From Escherichia virus TH15, in sequence record MT446392.1: DNA of 64,000 nucleotides. One strand, 5' to 3'. Positions 6,595 through 53,998 of the stretch are shown piece after piece. The notes beneath the pieces were generated by a model. It ran no database searches. It worked only from the letters and a program-made list of their open reading frames with translations, and was not told the origin of the DNA. Both the position numbers and the translations under genes were made by a program. Position 1 is the first letter of the stretch; every line of letters begins with the position of its first letter.

Positions 6595-6627
6595 ATTAAT
6601 CGGGGCTTCGGCCCCTAATGAGGCTTT

Positions 6628-11927: not shown

Positions 11928-11951
11928 AGGACCCTTCGGGGTCCTTTTTTA
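11928..11951 (+). terminator. Intrinsic terminator downstream of gene 52
   Basis: aggacccttcggggtcctttttt. Confidence 0.7.
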
Positions 11952-14616: not shown

Positions 14617-14892
14617 ATGACTAAATTTGAAATCGTTTCTGAAATTGTTACCGTTACTTCAATTTTGATTAAAACCGACCGGGAAGATATTACGATGAAG
14701 CGTGATGTGTTTATCGCGTTTTTGAATGAGTTGGGATTGAGGAATGAGAATGGGAATGAGTTAAACAATGTATCGTTTAACAAGTTGTTTAAAAGTTTAT
14801 CTGAAGATGAAATTGAACAAATCATTGAACAATTTAACGAAGGATTCGAAGATATACACCGATATCTGATGATGTATACCTCCGGATTCTAA
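14617..14892 (+). CDS. asiA: Anti-sigma70 factor AsiA
   Basis: 91 aa; EIVTVTSILIK, FIAFLNELG and FNEGFEDIHRYLMMYT match remembered T4 AsiA. Confidence 0.85.
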   Translation: MTKFEIVSEIVTVTSILIKTDREDITMKRDVFIAFLNELGLRNENGNELNNVSFNKLFKSLSEDEIEQIIEQFNEGFEDIHRYLMMYTSGF

Positions 14893-15542
14893 CGTGTACG
14901 CCCGAGCGTACGACCTGCTTGTCCACACATAGCAGAAAGTCTATCAAAACCAAGGTCTGGTTTCTGAACGTACCAATACAAAGAAACTGTACCTGCGTAA
15001 ACGTTCTCTAGATTAAAGAATGGGCAGCTGAACATATATGCGAAGCTGCTTTTTTTCTTTGTTGGTAAGAATACAAATTCATTACTGGATTCAAAATAAT
15101 TACCATTAACCCCCGCCAAATATTCCGCTGAAGTCTTATCTATTGGAAACCCACCCAAATTTTTCTCGTCAACTGTATCAGGCAATCTCCCTTCGTATCC
15201 AACCATATCCACAAAGTAATTAAGGTTAGTTGGTCTGAAGGAATAAATGGCTGTAAAGTCAGCTCCACTTGATGAATGGACTATCTGGATTTGCTCGATA
15301 GCTGCAATTTTAAATCTGTTGTCCTGGTCTTGCCTTATCATTTCAGTGTACGAGGCATATGAAGCATCCCTGTATGCATCTAAAATTGCATCACCTTTAT
15401 ACCAGATTACCGCCATTAAAAATAATAGAACAATAACTAGTACCCGGGAAAAGACAACTTTCCCGGTCGCATTATCTTTAAAAATTCTATCAAGAAGTCC
15501 AAAAAGTAGGTCGGGGATTGAGATTCCTACTTTTGGTTCCAT
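14889..15542 (-). CDS. t: Holin T
   Basis: 217 aa; DLLFGLLDRIFKDNATGKV, SGADFTAIYSFRPTNLNYFVD and YMFSCPFFNLENVYAGT match remembered T4 holin. Confidence 0.9.
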   Translation of the reverse strand: MEPKVGISIPDLLFGLLDRIFKDNATGKVVFSRVLVIVLLFLMAVIWYKGDAILDAYRDASYASYTEMIRQDQDNRFKIAAIEQIQIVHSSSGADFTAIYSFRPTNLNYFVDMVGYEGRLPDTVDEKNLGGFPIDKTSAEYLAGVNGNYFESSNEFVFLPTKKKSSFAYMFSCPFFNLENVYAGTVSLYWYVQKPDLGFDRLSAMCGQAGRTLGRTR

Positions 15543-15560
15543 ACTTTTCTCCTTTAAAGA

Positions 15561-15568
15561 TATTTATA
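15561..15568 (-). promoter_or_regulatory. Late promoter TATAAATA for holin t
   Basis: Minus-strand TATAAATA 18 nt upstream of the t start, followed by AGGAG. Confidence 0.55.
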
Positions 15569-15579
15569 GCGCAAAAGTA

Positions 15580-16380
15580 TTATAGCCATGGTCCATAGAT
15601 AGTACCTGTTGCTCCCCACATCGGGGATGACACTGCAACAGCTGCACCAGAACCGCCGCCGTCACCTCTTTTAAGGACAGAACCACCGTCGGACCATGCG
15701 TTTTGACCTGCGCCGCCAGCATCACCACCTCGTCCTGAGTGGGCGTTACCGTAATCATATCCGCCACCTGGGCTTTCATAAGAAGCGCCACCGCCAGAAG
15801 AACCGCCCCCACCGCCGGGGCCGAATGGTCTTCCGCCGCCGCCGCCAATATCCTGCCAGTTGGCACCAGAGTGTACTCGATAGGCAATGCCGCCACCGCC
15901 ACCGCCGCCACCGCAGATAACACCATAGTTCCAAATACGGAGTCTATGTCCTATATGGTTAACAATACAATCACCACCCCATTGCCCGTTGCCGTCACCG
16001 CCGGAGTGTGTCCAACCACCTTGCCCACCGCGTCCCCACATGTGAACTCCACCATGAATATTCAAAGTAACATATTCGTTAGGAGTATCTCCATTCATAA
16101 AGAATAACGGAACATCACGGGTATAAGATACTAAATCACCTGTGATATTAAACACTATAGGAGCACCACCGGCTTCAAAACAACGGTCACGGAACCATTG
16201 ACCATTAAAGTTATGGTCAGCTCCAAGCGTATGAATAATCTCACGAGAACGACCCGCGAATTGTGACATCCATGAAGGGTTTCCTAAACGAAGTTCCCTC
16301 GAAGCGGCCGACATCCATCTTTGCCCGGTTTCAGCGACGGCTGAAGTCCCAATCCAACCAGGAATTCCTACTACTGCCAT
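15580..16380 (-). CDS. 38: Tail-fibre adhesin gp38 (T2/S16-type, glycine-rich receptor-binding domain)
   Basis: 266 aa directly downstream of gene 37; repeated poly-Gly blocks separated by short variable segments. Confidence 0.75.
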
Positions 16381-16391
16381 ATAAACCTCCA

Positions 16392-16415
16392 GGGCCCGAA
16401 GGCCCTTTTATTATT
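16392..16415 (+). terminator. Plus-strand-oriented intrinsic terminator inside the minus-strand late operon (between 37 and 38)
   Basis: gggcccgaaggccc followed by ttttattatttt on the plus strand; the opposite strand lacks a U-run. Confidence 0.5.
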
Positions 16416-19400
16416 TTATCAATGATTTAATTAATGCTTTCAATTCAGCAATTTCAGATTTCAATTCCTTGATTTCGTCAGTATGCTCGTTGATAGTAGC
16501 AGTATTTAAACCGATAATACCGTTATAGTTTAAACGAAGTAAGCCGGTCTCTTTATCTTCAGAAACAAGTTCAGGCAATATTTCTTGAACTTCTTGAGCA
16601 ATTAAACCTGCAGATGGTTTAACTTCGTCTGTAACAGAGTTTTTAAGCAGATAAGTATAACCACCTAAGAGTTTAGATTTCTCTTGAGCGTTATCGATAA
16701 GCTTAATTTCCGACTTACAACGAATATCAGAACGGATATAAACGTCGTTAACGTCGATATTATCACGAACATACATACCAGCGTTAACGTTAAGGGCGAC
16801 GTTGCCGAATGTCTGAGCAAGCCCAGCACGGAAACTGAATACACCTTGGCCATTAGCATACGCGTTGAAAATACCGTCTGCTTCCCATACCAATCCAGTG
16901 TCGTTATCACCAATAACAATACAAGGGCCCGTCCATACCGGGTCACCGCCACCTGCTGATACTCTGTTGCTCTTAAGTAGGCTAGGGGCATAAAAAGTAC
17001 CGTTACTGTGGAATTCATAGATGGCTTGTGGGTCTGAACCGTTTTCCTGGTTGCCTACACGGATAATACCTTGTGCCCATGTATTAGTGATACGGCGCAT
17101 ACCAAAATCTACACCAGATACATAACCTTCATTAGTAATACCAGATCTTCCTTTAATAATAGGATAATAACTATCATTACCGACATTACCAAAATCCACA
17201 AACACAGGAGCTTCTTGACGCCATTGGTTTATCCAATCGCCAGCCTGGTGCGCAGCCCATTGCGAACCCTTTATATAAAGACGGTCCCTATTAAAATAAA
17301 AAGTATCCGACCCTTGAGGAGCTAAAGCAATTTCCCCACTATTATGAATATTAACGCCTGAATTGGTTCTGAAACTATAAAACGATAGAGCATTATCGGC
17401 GCCACCATTACCTACATACCAGTTATCAACGCCTGCTTTTTGTCCTTTCACATAACCAGATTCGGTTGCAGCACTGTTAATAACAATAGCATCCGAGTTG
17501 GCATTAATAGTTAAGCGACCAGTCATCGTATCGCCTTCTTTAGCCACACGGGAGGCAATAGCATCGCGAATATTTGTAGTGTCTCCTGCTGAAGTGAACG
17601 TTTTCCAGATATCAGAGAAGATGTTACCATTTTTAGCAATAGTAGCTTCGCCGCCCCCAACTTGCACGTTATCCGGGAAGTTAACTGTACCATCAGCATT
17701 AAATCTTGAGGTATGGGCTTGTGAACCATCTTCTTTCAAATGATGTAAAACAAATGTACCTGAATTAATTTCAGTACCCAAAGACCAGACAGCTTTACCA
17801 TTTAAAAACTTCTGTTTAACAATAGGATAATATTTGCTTACAGCATCATCATCAATTTCCTGGAAAATAGGAGCAGCTTGTGAATACTGAATATCATAAC
17901 CACCAGCACCCGCACCGTGTCCACCAAATTTAATAAAACCATTTTCAGCAAAAGTTGTATGGCTCAAATCCAGGTCCGGAATAACCACCTTACCGGTATC
18001 TAAAGCCAAACTAAACGGGCGAAGTGGACCGATGTCCCCAGTTTTACCTTCACCAAAGGCGGTAGGAATAATATGAAGACTTCCTTCTGAACGACGGAAA
18101 ATAGCGGCGTAATCGTCGTTCCAAATTCTAAGAGCATTGACCGCATTACCAGCAATAGTGCCGGAGACGTTAACTTCCTGACCGACATTTATACTTTCGT
18201 TTACGCCCAAAGTTCCATTTAAATGACTTTGAATAGCACCTGAAGACAGACGTTGATAATATTGAATCCAGCTAGTTGCATCAGATATTTCCATTACGTT
18301 TTTACGGTCGCCATCAACATTAGTAAAGGTATTACCCCAAACGGCGATAGTCATATTATCAACTGAACTACTTCCTGTAGTATTTCCTCTAAACATTAGT
18401 GTAGAAGCATTGTTGCGGCCGTCGATATTAACCGAACCGCCGATAACATTAATATCACCTGGGGTAACTAACAACCCACCAGCGGTGTTAACGTTTGTAG
18501 TGCCTTTACCACGGAAATAGTGGTGATAATTACCACCTTGATAATATCCTAAAAGGGTTTGACCGTCGCCGTATGCGTTATTATCGTGGTAGGTAACTAC
18601 AGTTGCCAGGGCATAGTTTTCTGCCGGTGGCGTTGTCATAAGAACCCCATCTGGAGAATATCCCATTACCATTTTTCTAAGGCTTTGGGTTTCTTCTGGG
18701 CCATAGATGAAAGTTCTTATGCCGTTGTTTACTGTATGGAAATATCCATCTTGGTGCCATTTTAAGCCTGTATCATTATCACCAAGGGCAATTGAAGCTG
18801 TTCCTAATTCGGAATATCCTTTAGGACCGTGTGGAAGACCTACAGAAACAGAATGACCCGCTTTCAACCCACCAGACCAAGTAAACGACCAAAGATATGC
18901 CTCTAATCCGTCGCCAGCATACCAGGTTATCCCATCATTGTCTTTAACCTCATGGAATATGCCAGCGCCTACAGCATTTCTCATAACACGAAGATGGTTA
19001 ATTGCTGTTTCGCTTTCGGTTAAAGGAGCATTATCAGCCATTGAATAGATGTCATAATCACCCGCCTTCTTGCCGTTGGTAATAACTTTATCGGTCAGAA
19101 TTTGTGGCGAAGAAATAGATTTCCACGCTGATACCTCAGGAGCTGTGAAAAGACCATTACCTGAAAACGCGTAAGTGCTTTCACTTCCTGCAGCGTAATC
19201 TTGGACGCGAATATTAACTACTTGATTGGTAAGACCTGCATTATTTGGCGAAAAGATAATACCGCGTTCTCGGTCATCGCCATCAAAGAAACGAAGGTGA
19301 GAAGTTGAGGCGCTCTTAGAAATCAGTTCGCCGCCTTCAGTCATTATCTGACCTGCAGCAATAATATCGCGAGTTACACGAGCAATTCCGGTTAAATTAA

Positions 19401-19656
19401 AATTACCTGTCTGAGTGAAGGTGCCATTGAGGGTATAATCGCCCGTTTGGTTGTAATTGCCTTTATGGATAACGTTACCATCAATATTGCCACCCTTAGC
19501 AAAACCAAGGTCAATAATAGCTCCGGTATCATCCTTTGTGAATAACAAGCGGTCTTTCAAGTTAATTGCGAGTTCACCTTCAGCCAATACAGTTGGGGTT
19601 GGGCGGACACCAGCAATTTTACTTCTTTTAAATTGTATTTGTTTTAAAGTAGCCAT
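16411..19656 (-). CDS. 37: Long tail fibre distal subunit gp37 with C-terminal intramolecular-chaperone-like domain
   Basis: 1081 aa, position between 36 and 38; C-terminus DIRCKSEIKLI...GLIAQEVQEILPELV plus coiled coil resembles S74-type auto-cleaving chaperone domains. Confidence 0.85.
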   Translation of the reverse strand: MATLKQIQFKRSKIAGVRPTPTVLAEGELAINLKDRLLFTKDDTGAIIDLGFAKGGNIDGNVIHKGNYNQTGDYTLNGTFTQTGNFNLTGIARVTRDIIAAGQIMTEGGELISKSASTSHLRFFDGDDRERGIIFSPNNAGLTNQVVNIRVQDYAAGSESTYAFSGNGLFTAPEVSAWKSISSPQILTDKVITNGKKAGDYDIYSMADNAPLTESETAINHLRVMRNAVGAGIFHEVKDNDGITWYAGDGLEAYLWSFTWSGGLKAGHSVSVGLPHGPKGYSELGTASIALGDNDTGLKWHQDGYFHTVNNGIRTFIYGPEETQSLRKMVMGYSPDGVLMTTPPAENYALATVVTYHDNNAYGDGQTLLGYYQGGNYHHYFRGKGTTNVNTAGGLLVTPGDINVIGGSVNIDGRNNASTLMFRGNTTGSSSVDNMTIAVWGNTFTNVDGDRKNVMEISDATSWIQYYQRLSSGAIQSHLNGTLGVNESINVGQEVNVSGTIAGNAVNALRIWNDDYAAIFRRSEGSLHIIPTAFGEGKTGDIGPLRPFSLALDTGKVVIPDLDLSHTTFAENGFIKFGGHGAGAGGYDIQYSQAAPIFQEIDDDAVSKYYPIVKQKFLNGKAVWSLGTEINSGTFVLHHLKEDGSQAHTSRFNADGTVNFPDNVQVGGGEATIAKNGNIFSDIWKTFTSAGDTTNIRDAIASRVAKEGDTMTGRLTINANSDAIVINSAATESGYVKGQKAGVDNWYVGNGGADNALSFYSFRTNSGVNIHNSGEIALAPQGSDTFYFNRDRLYIKGSQWAAHQAGDWINQWRQEAPVFVDFGNVGNDSYYPIIKGRSGITNEGYVSGVDFGMRRITNTWAQGIIRVGNQENGSDPQAIYEFHSNGTFYAPSLLKSNRVSAGGGDPVWTGPCIVIGDNDTGLVWEADGIFNAYANGQGVFSFRAGLAQTFGNVALNVNAGMYVRDNIDVNDVYIRSDIRCKSEIKLIDNAQEKSKLLGGYTYLLKNSVTDEVKPSAGLIAQEVQEILPELVSEDKETGLLRLNYNGIIGLNTATINEHTDEIKELKSEIAELKALIKSLIK

Positions 19657-20348: not shown

Positions 20349-20356
20349 TATTTATA
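20349..20356 (-). promoter_or_regulatory. Late promoter TATAAATA for genes 36-37
   Basis: Minus-strand TATAAATA immediately after the gene 35 terminator. Confidence 0.55.
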
Positions 20357-20382
20357 ACGAAAAAAGGACCCGAAGGTCCTTA
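20357..20382 (-). terminator. Intrinsic terminator downstream of gene 35
   Basis: Minus-strand reading: aggaccttcgggtccttttttcg. Confidence 0.65.
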
Positions 20383-36062: not shown

Positions 36063-36790
36063 TGAATTATCAAAACATTTATAATAATTTAATATCCCGG
36101 GGTAAAACCCGGGAACCTTTAGCCGAATATAAAGAGATTCATCATATTATCCCAAGATGTATGGGTGGTACTGATGAAAAGACAAACCTTGTCGAGTTAA
36201 CAGCTCGAGAACATTTTATTGCTCATTTACTTTTATGCAAAATAAATCCCGGTCATTTTGGATTAGTCTCGGCCCTAACTTTAATGGCAACAGATAAAGC
36301 TGGAAATCGTATTAATAATAAATTGTATAGTTTCCATCGAAAGCTATTTGCCAAAGCAAATTCCGAATTCTTTAAGGAACACTGGAAAAATAACCCACAC
36401 CCCCGCGGTATGTTGGGTAAGCATCACAGTGAAGAATCTAAACAAATTGTAAGCGAAAAGAATAAGTTAGCTGTTCCATCTACAGAAATTTATCAATTTA
36501 CTCTCGATGGTGAATTTGTTGAAAAATTTAGGTCATTACAAGAGGCGGCGAGGACTGTAAATGGAAACGCGTCAAACATCAAGTATTGTGCAAGTGGAAA
36601 ATTTCAATATGCGTATGGATTTAGATGGTCATATTCGCTTCAACCCACATTTGATAAAATAACTCCACGACAATATAAAGGTGCCCGTGGTAAAATCTGT
36701 ATTAATGACGGGTTTACAAATAAATTAATTGAATCCTCTGAAATTATCCCCGATGGATGGGTCAGAGGAAGGATAAAGGTTAATAAATGA
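36062..36790 (+). CDS. HNH homing endonuclease (mobE-like, free-standing between nrdA and nrdB)
   Basis: HHIIPRCMGGTDEKTNLVELTAREHFIAH HNH motif near the N-terminus; C-terminal DNA-binding-type repeats; same location as T4 mobE. Confidence 0.7.
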   Translation: MNYQNIYNNLISRGKTREPLAEYKEIHHIIPRCMGGTDEKTNLVELTAREHFIAHLLLCKINPGHFGLVSALTLMATDKAGNRINNKLYSFHRKLFAKANSEFFKEHWKNNPHPRGMLGKHHSEESKQIVSEKNKLAVPSTEIYQFTLDGEFVEKFRSLQEAARTVNGNASNIKYCASGKFQYAYGFRWSYSLQPTFDKITPRQYKGARGKICINDGFTNKLIESSEIIPDGWVRGRIKVNK

Positions 36791-37965
36791 GTACAGTTTT
36801 TAACACCAAACAAGTCGATGTTTTGGAGGAGCCGATGTTCTTCGGTTCCGGATTGGGCATCGCCCGTTATGATATCCAACGTCATAAGGTATTTGAAGAA
36901 CTTACTGAAAAATCCCTCTCATTTTTCTGGCGGCCAGAGGAAGTCAACCTGATGATGGATGGAGCCCAATTTAATAAGCTTCCTGAACATCAACAAAATA
37001 TTTTTACCAACAACCTGAAATACCAATCACTTCTGGATAGTATCCAGGGTCGTGCTCCAGCTGCAGCATTAGCCGCATTAGTTTCCGACCCAAGTCTTGA
37101 TACATGGATTCAGACCTGGACATTCAGCGAGACAATTCACTCTCGTTCTTATACGCACATAATGCGAAATCTCTATACGGACCCGGCGAAGGTATTCGAC
37201 GAAATCCTGTTAGATGATGCAATTATGAAGCGCGCAGAATCTATCGGTCATTACTATGATGATGTTCTGAATAAAACTCGTCAATGGCAAAACCAGATTG
37301 CTTTTGTTGAACTGGCCAAAGAAACTCCCGAAGCGGACGAACGTTTGGAACGAGCTATCAAACAAGAAGCTATTGCCAAACGAGCATTGATGAAGTCTCT
37401 TTATCTCTGTCTGCACGTTATTAACGCCCTGGAAGCTATTCGTTTTTATGTATCTTTTGCTTGTACTTTCAACTTCCATAAAAACATGGAAATCATGGAA
37501 GGTAATGCGAAGATAATGAAGTTCATCGCCCGTGATGAACAGCTCCACCTTAAGGGGACCCAATATATTCTTCGTCAGTTGCAGACTGGCACCGACGGTG
37601 ACGAATGGGTTAAAATTGCTCAAGAATGTGAAGCAGAAGCCGCAGCTATTTTCATGGAAGTTAATCGCCAGGAAAAAGAATGGGCCGTGCATCTGTTTAA
37701 AGATGGTGGACTCCCTGGGCTGAGCGTCGAGATTCTTAACCGGTTCATCGATTACCTGACAGTTTCTCGTATGAAGCAATGCGGTCTCCCTTGTGAAATC
37801 GTGTTAGAATCTACTAAGCACCCGATTCCATGGATTCGCGAATATCTCAATTCTGATAATGTGCAATCAGCACCACAAGAAGTTGAGTTGTCCGCTTACC
37901 TGGTAGCCCAGATTGACAATGACGTCGATGAGAATGTTCTTGCTGGTTTCCGTAAATATCTATAA
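36787..37965 (+). CDS. nrdB: Ribonucleotide reductase small subunit, intron-less
   Basis: 392 aa versus T4 388 aa; di-iron ligand motifs (E..H) and conserved C-terminus. Confidence 0.95.
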   Translation: MSTVFNTKQVDVLEEPMFFGSGLGIARYDIQRHKVFEELTEKSLSFFWRPEEVNLMMDGAQFNKLPEHQQNIFTNNLKYQSLLDSIQGRAPAAALAALVSDPSLDTWIQTWTFSETIHSRSYTHIMRNLYTDPAKVFDEILLDDAIMKRAESIGHYYDDVLNKTRQWQNQIAFVELAKETPEADERLERAIKQEAIAKRALMKSLYLCLHVINALEAIRFYVSFACTFNFHKNMEIMEGNAKIMKFIARDEQLHLKGTQYILRQLQTGTDGDEWVKIAQECEAEAAAIFMEVNRQEKEWAVHLFKDGGLPGLSVEILNRFIDYLTVSRMKQCGLPCEIVLESTKHPIPWIREYLNSDNVQSAPQEVELSAYLVAQIDNDVDENVLAGFRKYL

Positions 37966-37967
37966 GG

Positions 37968-37988
37968 AAAGGGCTTCGGCCCTTTTTG
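37968..37988 (+). terminator. Intrinsic terminator downstream of nrdB
   Basis: aagggcttcggccctttttg. Confidence 0.65.
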
Positions 37989-37991
37989 TCT

Positions 37992-38402
37992 ATGAAACAA
38001 ATCGCTGACGAATACAGTTTTATAAAATATGCGGAGTTAGAGTTAGTCGATGGTAAAATCCCTATCCTTACTCTCGCAAACAAGAAAAATGTTATCTACG
38101 CTATTTCAGTTGACGACGAACTAGTGTATATTGGTAAGACGAACAACCTGAAGAAGCGAATCAATTATTACCGGACTGCAATCAATCGTATAGAACAAAC
38201 GAGTGATTCAAACAAATCCCGGATGATACATGAAGCTTTACAAGAAGGCAAAAAGGTGGTATTCTATGCACGACAATGTTTCAATCTGTCAATGACCAAT
38301 GAACTTGGTACGATGTCAGTCGAAACGATGTCTCTGGAAGAGCCGATGTTCATCAAGCTTTTTAATCCCCCGTGGAATTACCAACATAAGGTGAAGAAAT
38401 GA
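37992..38402 (+). CDS. denA: Endonuclease II (GIY-YIG)
   Basis: IADEYSFIKYAELEL, VIYAISVDDELVYIGKTNNLKKRINYYRTAINR and FYARQCFNLSMTNELGT are near-identical to remembered T4 DenA. Track start 37986 is TTG. Confidence 0.9.
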   Translation: MKQIADEYSFIKYAELELVDGKIPILTLANKKNVIYAISVDDELVYIGKTNNLKKRINYYRTAINRIEQTSDSNKSRMIHEALQEGKKVVFYARQCFNLSMTNELGTMSVETMSLEEPMFIKLFNPPWNYQHKVKK

Positions 38403-53968: not shown

Positions 53969-53998
53969 AAAAGGGACCTTCGGGTCCCTTTCTTTTTA
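53966..53998. terminator. Bidirectional intrinsic terminator between convergent plus-strand ORF and gene 54
   Basis: aaaaagggaccttcgggtccctttcttttt: hairpin flanked by A-run and T-run. Confidence 0.75.

Follow-up and report, generated by a model that had tools for sequence, protein, structure and literature searches.

A conserved intercistronic hairpin between tail-fibre genes 37 and 38 of a JS98-like T-even phage: probable late-mRNA element and possible antisense terminator

INTRODUCTION

The C(UUCG)G hairpin carries an extraordinarily stable tetraloop and was first found in the mRNA of bacteriophage T4 (PMC4371310). The T4 hairpins of this kind (Tuerk et al., 1988, as recounted in PMC4371310) have a UUCG loop closed by a C-G pair, are intercistronic and lie in the sense orientation, and the hairpin described here is like them in all of these respects. 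In T4 gene 38 a hairpin is located between the Shine-Dalgarno (SD) sequence and the AUG and cuts the spacing between them from 22 to 5 nt, an arrangement described as a 'split' SD-AUG (Nivinskas et al., reviewed in PMC3014915). T4 gene 25 is a parallel to gene 38 and mutations that destabilise the hairpin lower initiation (PMC3014915).

Two further kinds of element are relevant to hairpins between phage genes. For T4-type phages it has been suggested that stem-loops of the form GGGG...CCCC serve as sites of recombination; the promoter-early plus stem-loop (PeSL) cassettes of these phages contain a GC-rich GGG..CCC intergenic stem-loop able to terminate or attenuate transcription (PMC2839356), and Rho-dependent termination is treated in PMC2988021.

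The T4 gene 38 hairpin and the intercistronic C(UUCG)G hairpins are already known; what is added here is a member at a T2-type gene 37/38 junction. The DNA that we have analysed, referred to as the window, is a stretch of 64,000 nt from Escherichia virus TH15 (MT446392.1).

METHODS

The junction sample consisted of 43 IMG/VR loci encoding relatives of gp38, together with T4, T2 and T6. There were only two T4-type gp38 loci in IMG/VR, so the T4-type sample is small (T4 and the loci L056 and L057). The hairpin census covered every GC-rich tetraloop hairpin in the window, of which ten have a TTCG loop.

RESULTS AND DISCUSSION

Gene arrangement around the 37/38 junction

The window is a portion of a T-even phage genome with a JS98/Dhakavirus-like character. 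The backbone is nearest to Dhakavirus/JS98-like phages, with 94% identity to vB_EcoM_RZ across the first 12 kb of the window, and BLAST, with roughly 200 or more matching T-even genomes, shows 86-89% identity with VR26, JS98 and ABTNLS3 in the tail-fibre region. No phage record exceeds about 94% identity to the backbone. The strand that is called 'early' in T4 corresponds to the plus strand of the window. The genes and promoters that concern us here are as follows; the identities of asiA, t, 38 and 37 are confirmed.

14617-14892, plus strand: asiA, the nearest plus-strand gene upstream of the hairpin, with its stop codon 1.5 kb before the hairpin
14889-15542, minus strand: holin gene t
15561-15568, minus strand: late promoter TATAAATA ahead of t
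15580-16380, minus strand: gene 38, a T2-type tail-fibre adhesin of 266 aa (PF05268 and PF21721)
16411-19656, minus strand: gene 37, the distal long tail-fibre subunit of 1081 aa, with a C-terminal Peptidase_S74 chaperone domain
20349-20356, minus strand: late promoter TATAAATA before gene 36, from which the late transcript of 36, 37 and 38 probably starts

The genes for gp36 and gp35 are located further along, beyond gp37. The hairpin is in the 30 nt that separate the stop codon of gp37 from the start codon of gp38. As there are late promoters before gene 36 and before t, the hairpin is expected to be internal to the 36-37-38 late transcript.

The Peptidase_S74 domain at the C-terminus of gp37 (16411-17400, minus strand) is an endosialidase-type intramolecular chaperone domain. 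Together with the T2-type adhesin gp38 it makes the receptor-recognition module T2-like, on a JS98/Dhakavirus-like backbone. There is also a plus-strand ORF that overlaps the hairpin (16263-16430, 55 aa, GTG start); it is antisense to gp38 and gp37 and shows no sign of being a gene.

A C(UUCG)G hairpin precedes the gene 38 SD sequence

The features within and next to the 37/38 gap are these.

16378-16380, minus strand: ATG start codon of gene 38
16386-16390, minus strand: SD sequence GGAGG of gene 38, which begins at the first base past the stem, with 5 nt between it and the AUG
16391-16406, minus strand: intercistronic hairpin of 6 bp, 5 of them G-C, reading AGGGCC-UUCG-GGCCCU in the late sense and AGGGCC-CGAA-GGCCCU in the plus sense
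16397-16400, minus strand: tetraloop, UUCG on the late strand and closed by a C-G pair, CGAA on the plus strand
16408-16413, minus strand: tandem in-frame TAA TAA stop codons of gene 37, which give the TTATTA of the plus-strand T-run
16407-16417, plus strand: T-rich tract TTTATTATTTT immediately following the hairpin on its 3' side; as RNA it is a candidate U-tract for intrinsic termination in the antisense direction

The sequence GGGCCCGAAGGCCC occupies 16392-16405 and one further A-T pair extends the hairpin to 16391-16406. Its CUUCGG is at 16401-16396 on the minus strand, where the hairpin is followed by GGAGGTTTATATG and the T-run is absent. The preliminary description had reported a hairpin followed by a T-run on just one strand, the plus strand, opposite the late tail-fibre genes, and this is what the sequence contains.

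The stem is perfectly complementary, and it is only in the tetraloop bonus that the folds of the two strands differ, with a ΔG of -11.2 kcal/mol in the late sense against -10.3 kcal/mol in the plus sense; the CGAA loop of the plus strand has no special stability. In a 180 nt late-mRNA context the pair probability of the hairpin is approximately 1.0, and in the nascent plus-strand RNA it is 0.81-1.0 with 40-150 nt of upstream RNA. Searches with the Rfam 15 covariance models gave no match at the hairpin up to E = 10 and no match at the gathering score across the whole window.

The census suggests on which strand the hairpin is used. All ten GC-rich UUCG hairpins of the window carry the loop in the sense orientation of the genes beside them; eight are on the plus strand among plus-strand genes and two are on the minus strand among the late tail-fibre genes. 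The hexamer CTTCGG is itself enriched twofold in the window (37 occurrences against 18.9 ± 4.0 expected). By the rule that UUCG lies on the sense strand, the 37/38 hairpin would be an element of the late mRNA. The C(UUCG)G class is, however, defined by thermodynamics and not by one function, and some members are terminators (those at 11928 and 46761 in the window) while others are not.

The hairpin is conserved and covaries in related phages

In 35 of 47 junctions, those of T2, T4 and T6 among them, a GC hairpin at least as stable as -8.9 kcal/mol separates the stop codon of gene 37 from the ribosome-binding site of gene 38. The close relative vB_EcoM_VR26 has the same junction as the window. 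More distant phages, in which genes 37 and 38 are directly adjacent, lack the hairpin. Stem sequences vary from lineage to lineage (GGGCC/GGCCC, GGGGC/GCCCC, AGAGGGC/GCCCTCT, TGGGGC/GCCCCA and GGGAC/GTCCC). In an alignment of 12 sequences 94% of the cells pair, changes on both sides were found in four of the seven pairs, and none of 500 shuffles reached the observed covariation.

Covariation alone does not give the strand, but three asymmetries do: the UUCG loop, the G.U pairs and the stability in the late sense. At least 11 different junction sequences have UUCG when read in the late sense, and no junction has a stable-tetraloop motif in the early sense. The G.U pairs of T4, of the L022 type and of L057 form in the late sense only and are C.A mismatches on the early strand. 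Additionally, every UUCG form is more stable in the late sense (for T4, -13.0 kcal/mol against -8.2 kcal/mol in the early sense). In the T2-type junctions the SD sequence begins 0-3 nt past the stem.

In two relatives the 37/38 hairpin is followed by a U-run on the late strand. In L057, which has a T4-type gp38, the junction (approximately 1465-1500) reads GUCCCUUUUU AUAAU AUG with the hairpin between the SD sequence and the AUG, and in L033 (approximately 1440-1480) it reads GGGGC UUUUCUUGUG. To judge by their sequences, the hairpins at these two junctions look like late-strand attenuators.

Comparison with the T4 gene 38 hairpin

The counterpart at the 37/38 junction of T4 reads TAAGGAGAGGGGCTTCGGCCCTTCTAAATATG, and when counted in the T4 sequence the spacing from SD to AUG is exactly 22 nt. 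By sequence and location, the hairpin in the window corresponds in position to the one published for T4 gene 38. Each of them follows the stop codon of gene 37 directly and precedes the AUG of gene 38; each has a G/C stem of 6-8 bp that is closed in the late mRNA by a C(UUCG)G tetraloop, and neither has a U-tract on the late strand.

The two junctions differ in other respects. The order in T4 is GGAG, hairpin, 7 nt and AUG, whereas the order in the window is hairpin, GGAGG, 5 nt and AUG. The gp38 proteins are unrelated, that of T4 being an assembly chaperone and that of the window an adhesin, and the T4 junction has no T-run on either strand whereas the window has one on the plus strand. The window therefore shares with the split SD-AUG genes a stable hairpin in the 37-38 late mRNA, but this hairpin is not between the SD sequence and the start codon. 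As the window has a canonical SD sequence after the hairpin, the spacing mechanism of T4 cannot apply as such.

A proposed role in the late mRNA

Taken together, the data suggest, with a probability that we put at roughly 65%, that the element is a conserved intercistronic GC hairpin of the T-even 36-37-38 late transcript that is selected as an RNA structure in the minus-strand mRNA. The preliminary description had proposed that in the late 37-38 mRNA the hairpin does not terminate and may stabilise the message or tune gene 38, and this proposal now draws good support from the C(UUCG)G loop, the adjacency of the SD sequence, the compensatory changes and the T4 counterpart. For the phage of the window, an effect on gene 38 translation or on mRNA stability is inferred.

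The hairpin is predicted to fold autonomously as a C(UUCG)G tetraloop with its stem ending where GGAGG begins, and may in this way be a part of the gene 38 translation-initiation region. The G/C-rich spacer would be locked into local structure, which would leave the SD sequence and the AUG in an open, AU-rich stretch that is insulated from the gene 37 coding sequence. In the 180 nt ensemble the unpaired probabilities of the SD bases are 0.43, 0.95, 0.96, 0.40 and 0.11; the SD sequence is only partly open, and insulation is put forward as a proposal. The hairpin might also be a barrier to nucleases, either as a stop to 3' exonucleases for the 36-37 message or as a 5' hairpin for a processed 38 message. 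Late transcription would not be terminated by it. A late-strand terminator in the window was considered and rejected, since the tail GGAGGUUUAU has a T-score of only 0.24. A literature search found no experiment on the phage of the window or on any T2-type junction.

Terminator-like features of the plus strand

The consensus scan lists the site as terminator-like on the plus strand, with six pairs (five G-C) and a 4 nt loop. The hairpin (ΔG -10.3) with UUUAUUAUUUU has a d-score of +16.5 in the style of d'Aubenton-Carafa, a score that serves here only for ranking within this data set. Among the UUCG hairpins of the window five are terminator-like on the sense strand (36.5, 51.3, 13.0, 2.6 and -1.0), and the plus-strand site ranks above three of these. 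The antisense T-score of 3.92 is the highest among the ten UUCG hairpins. The other co-directional hairpins have values of 0.25-2.36 and the convergent one (53970-53991) has 3.52. A T-score of 3.92 is attained by 0.25% of all 15-mers in the window and by 2-4% of the antisense tails at 93 gene ends.

The T-run at 16407-16417 is built largely from codons: after a 1 nt spacer, six of its 11 bases are the TAA TAA stop codons and three more are a Lys codon, AAA. The explanation that the T-run is merely stop and Lys codons was tried and is only partly sufficient, as so few of the 93 gene ends reach the same T-score, which suggests that the T-run is stronger than a codon by-product alone would predict. 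The A-rich tract 5' of the hairpin in the late mRNA is stronger than gene ends in general would lead one to expect, which a role in the late mRNA does not account for on its own.

Alternative explanations

The main alternative is that the hairpin and the T-run have been selected as an intrinsic terminator on the plus strand, at which early or middle transcription from asiA, running antisense through t and 38, is halted before gene 37. Such a terminator would limit 'anti-late' RNA, and as the same hairpin would be harmless in the late mRNA this reading is compatible with a late-mRNA role (dual use). The scores given above are consistent with it, as are the formation of the hairpin in the nascent plus-strand RNA (probability approximately 1.0), its place as the first terminator-like site on the plus strand past asiA, and the T-scores of most T2-type relatives (2.2-4.5, against a gene-end mean of approximately 1.4). 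Conservation of the hairpin does not extend to the T-run, however: the T4-type junctions have T-scores of 0.8-1.4 and no U-tract, the T-runs of T2 (UUUACAUAAG) and T6 (UUGUUGUUAG) are weak, and JS98 has a T-score of 2.84, so that high values are confined to some T2-type lineages. Nor is there a terminator-like site anywhere on the T4 early strand from asiA to gene 37, which suggests that such a block is no general need of T-even phages. The composition of the T-run from codons, the CGAA loop and the change of G.U pairs to C.A mismatches in relatives all disfavour the plus-strand RNA as the selected molecule, and no plus-strand gene ends at the hairpin. Rho-dependent termination is expected on untranslated RNA that is rich in C and poor in G. 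The site is 1.5 kb past asiA, across RNA of this kind on which Rho could act:

14893-16390, plus strand: untranslated antisense stretch opposite t and 38, with 411 C against 282 G and a C/G ratio of up to 3.25 in windows along it; rut-like

A literature search gave no usable mapping of transcript 3' ends or of anti-late or antisense RNA across t, 38 and 37 in T4 or any T-even phage. Selection as a plus-strand terminator is in our view possible but rather unlikely. As the preliminary description proposed, the plus-strand hairpin and U-tract have the sequence of an intrinsic terminator, but the T-run is not kept with the hairpin. Plus-strand termination is credible by sequence as a secondary, lineage-specific property and would be at most a side effect.

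A role at the level of DNA, in which the GC palindrome would serve as a short homology patch or cruciform that aids the exchange of gene 38/gene 37-tip cassettes among T-even phages in the manner of the PeSL stem-loops, is very improbable. It could account for the 16 nt (AGAGGGGCTTCGGCCC) that T4 and the T2-type phages have in common at the junction although neither their gp38 proteins nor their gp37 C-termini are related. However, GGGGCTTCGGCCCC is also present at an unrelated junction in the window (6602-6615), suggesting that the shared 16 nt may be convergence. The BLAST blocks common to many relatives span the hairpin, from inside gp38 (approximately 16025) into gp37, which puts it within a conserved segment rather than at a mosaic boundary, and recombination is for this reason rejected as the main explanation. 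There is no early promoter attached to the hairpin, the nearest plus-strand promoter-like match being 84 nt away within gene 37 (16490-16518), and such matches occur at chance frequency. A DNA-level role would also leave the strand asymmetry of the loop and of the G.U pairs unexplained. That the hairpin is a chance palindrome in an AT-rich spacer with no function is hardly credible. Loose terminator-like patterns are indeed common, with 17 sites in the 14 kb consensus scan against 10.9 ± 3.4 in shuffled sequence, but the exact palindrome GGGCCNNNNGGCCC is rare (one match against 0.03 expected in the 64 kb window), and the conserved position and covarying stems across distant T-even phages contradict an origin by chance.

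Bidirectional terminators at convergent junctions, such as that at 53970-53991, resemble the 37/38 site in having a GC hairpin, a T-run opposite the UUCG strand and a similar antisense T-score (3.52 against 3.92). In contrast with these, the genes that flank the 37/38 hairpin are co-directional, there is no T-run on the sense strand and no plus-strand gene ends nearby, asiA being 1.5 kb upstream. The PeSL cassettes (PMC2839356) are alike in their stem-loop, but the 37/38 hairpin has no adjacent early promoter, is not in a hyperplastic region and is not at a mosaic boundary.

Implications

The 37/38 hairpin known from T4 recurs generally in the tail-fibre operons of T-even phages. It has outlasted the exchange between two unrelated types of gene 38, with a changed relation to the SD sequence, which is before the hairpin in T4 and after it in the T2-type junctions. 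This is a small case in which an RNA structure has been kept and the ribosome-binding site rebuilt around it. When gp37/gp38 cassettes are engineered for host range, the hairpin should stay with the junction. Beyond annotation its importance is slight.

For the JS98/VR26-like lineage we tentatively raise the less probable idea that the late-mRNA hairpin has been co-opted as a one-sided 'reverse' terminator. The gene 37 stop codons, the Lys codon and the spacer would have been kept A-rich so as to supply an antisense U-tract, shielding gene 37 from anti-late transcription out of the asiA/motA early region. If so, one 16 nt hairpin would serve two RNAs: the late mRNA, in ribosome binding or stability, and the early antisense RNA, which it would terminate. 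The effect of such a dual-use hairpin in limiting anti-late RNA would probably be modest and lineage-specific.

Other hairpins in the window and in T4

The genes asiA (plus strand) and t (minus strand) overlap tail to tail by 4 nt (14889-14912). Just past the asiA stop codon there is a 7 bp hairpin, TGTACGC-CCGA-GCGTACG, with no T-run. No intrinsic-terminator-like site was found on the plus strand between asiA and 16391, and none is listed on the minus strand just downstream of t. In T4 there is a 14 bp hairpin inside asiA (L001, 8921-8953) that resembles a late terminator of t.

The hairpin at 53970-53991 is the sole case at a convergent junction among the ten UUCG hairpins. It has T-runs on both strands (CTTTTTATAATA and TTTATTTGCGGA), which is the sequence layout of a bidirectional terminator. 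At the 35/36 junction (20349-20381, minus strand) the hairpin AAGGACC-UUCG-GGUCCUU is followed by UUUUCGUUAUAAAUA. This hairpin is terminator-like on the late strand and its tail leads straight into the gene 36 late promoter TATAAATA; the tail on the plus strand, AUUGUUUUUCUC, is also fairly T-rich.

Finally, there is a C(UUCG)G hairpin on the plus strand (37963-37994) at the junction of an nrdB-like gene (36787-37965, PF00268) and a gene for a denA-like GIY-YIG protein of 136 aa (37992-38402). The junction reads TAAGGAAAGGGCTTCGGCCCTTTTTGTCTATG, with an SD-like AAGGA, the hairpin and an AUG 4 nt past the stem, and thus has the same 'split' SD-AUG layout as T4 gene 38.
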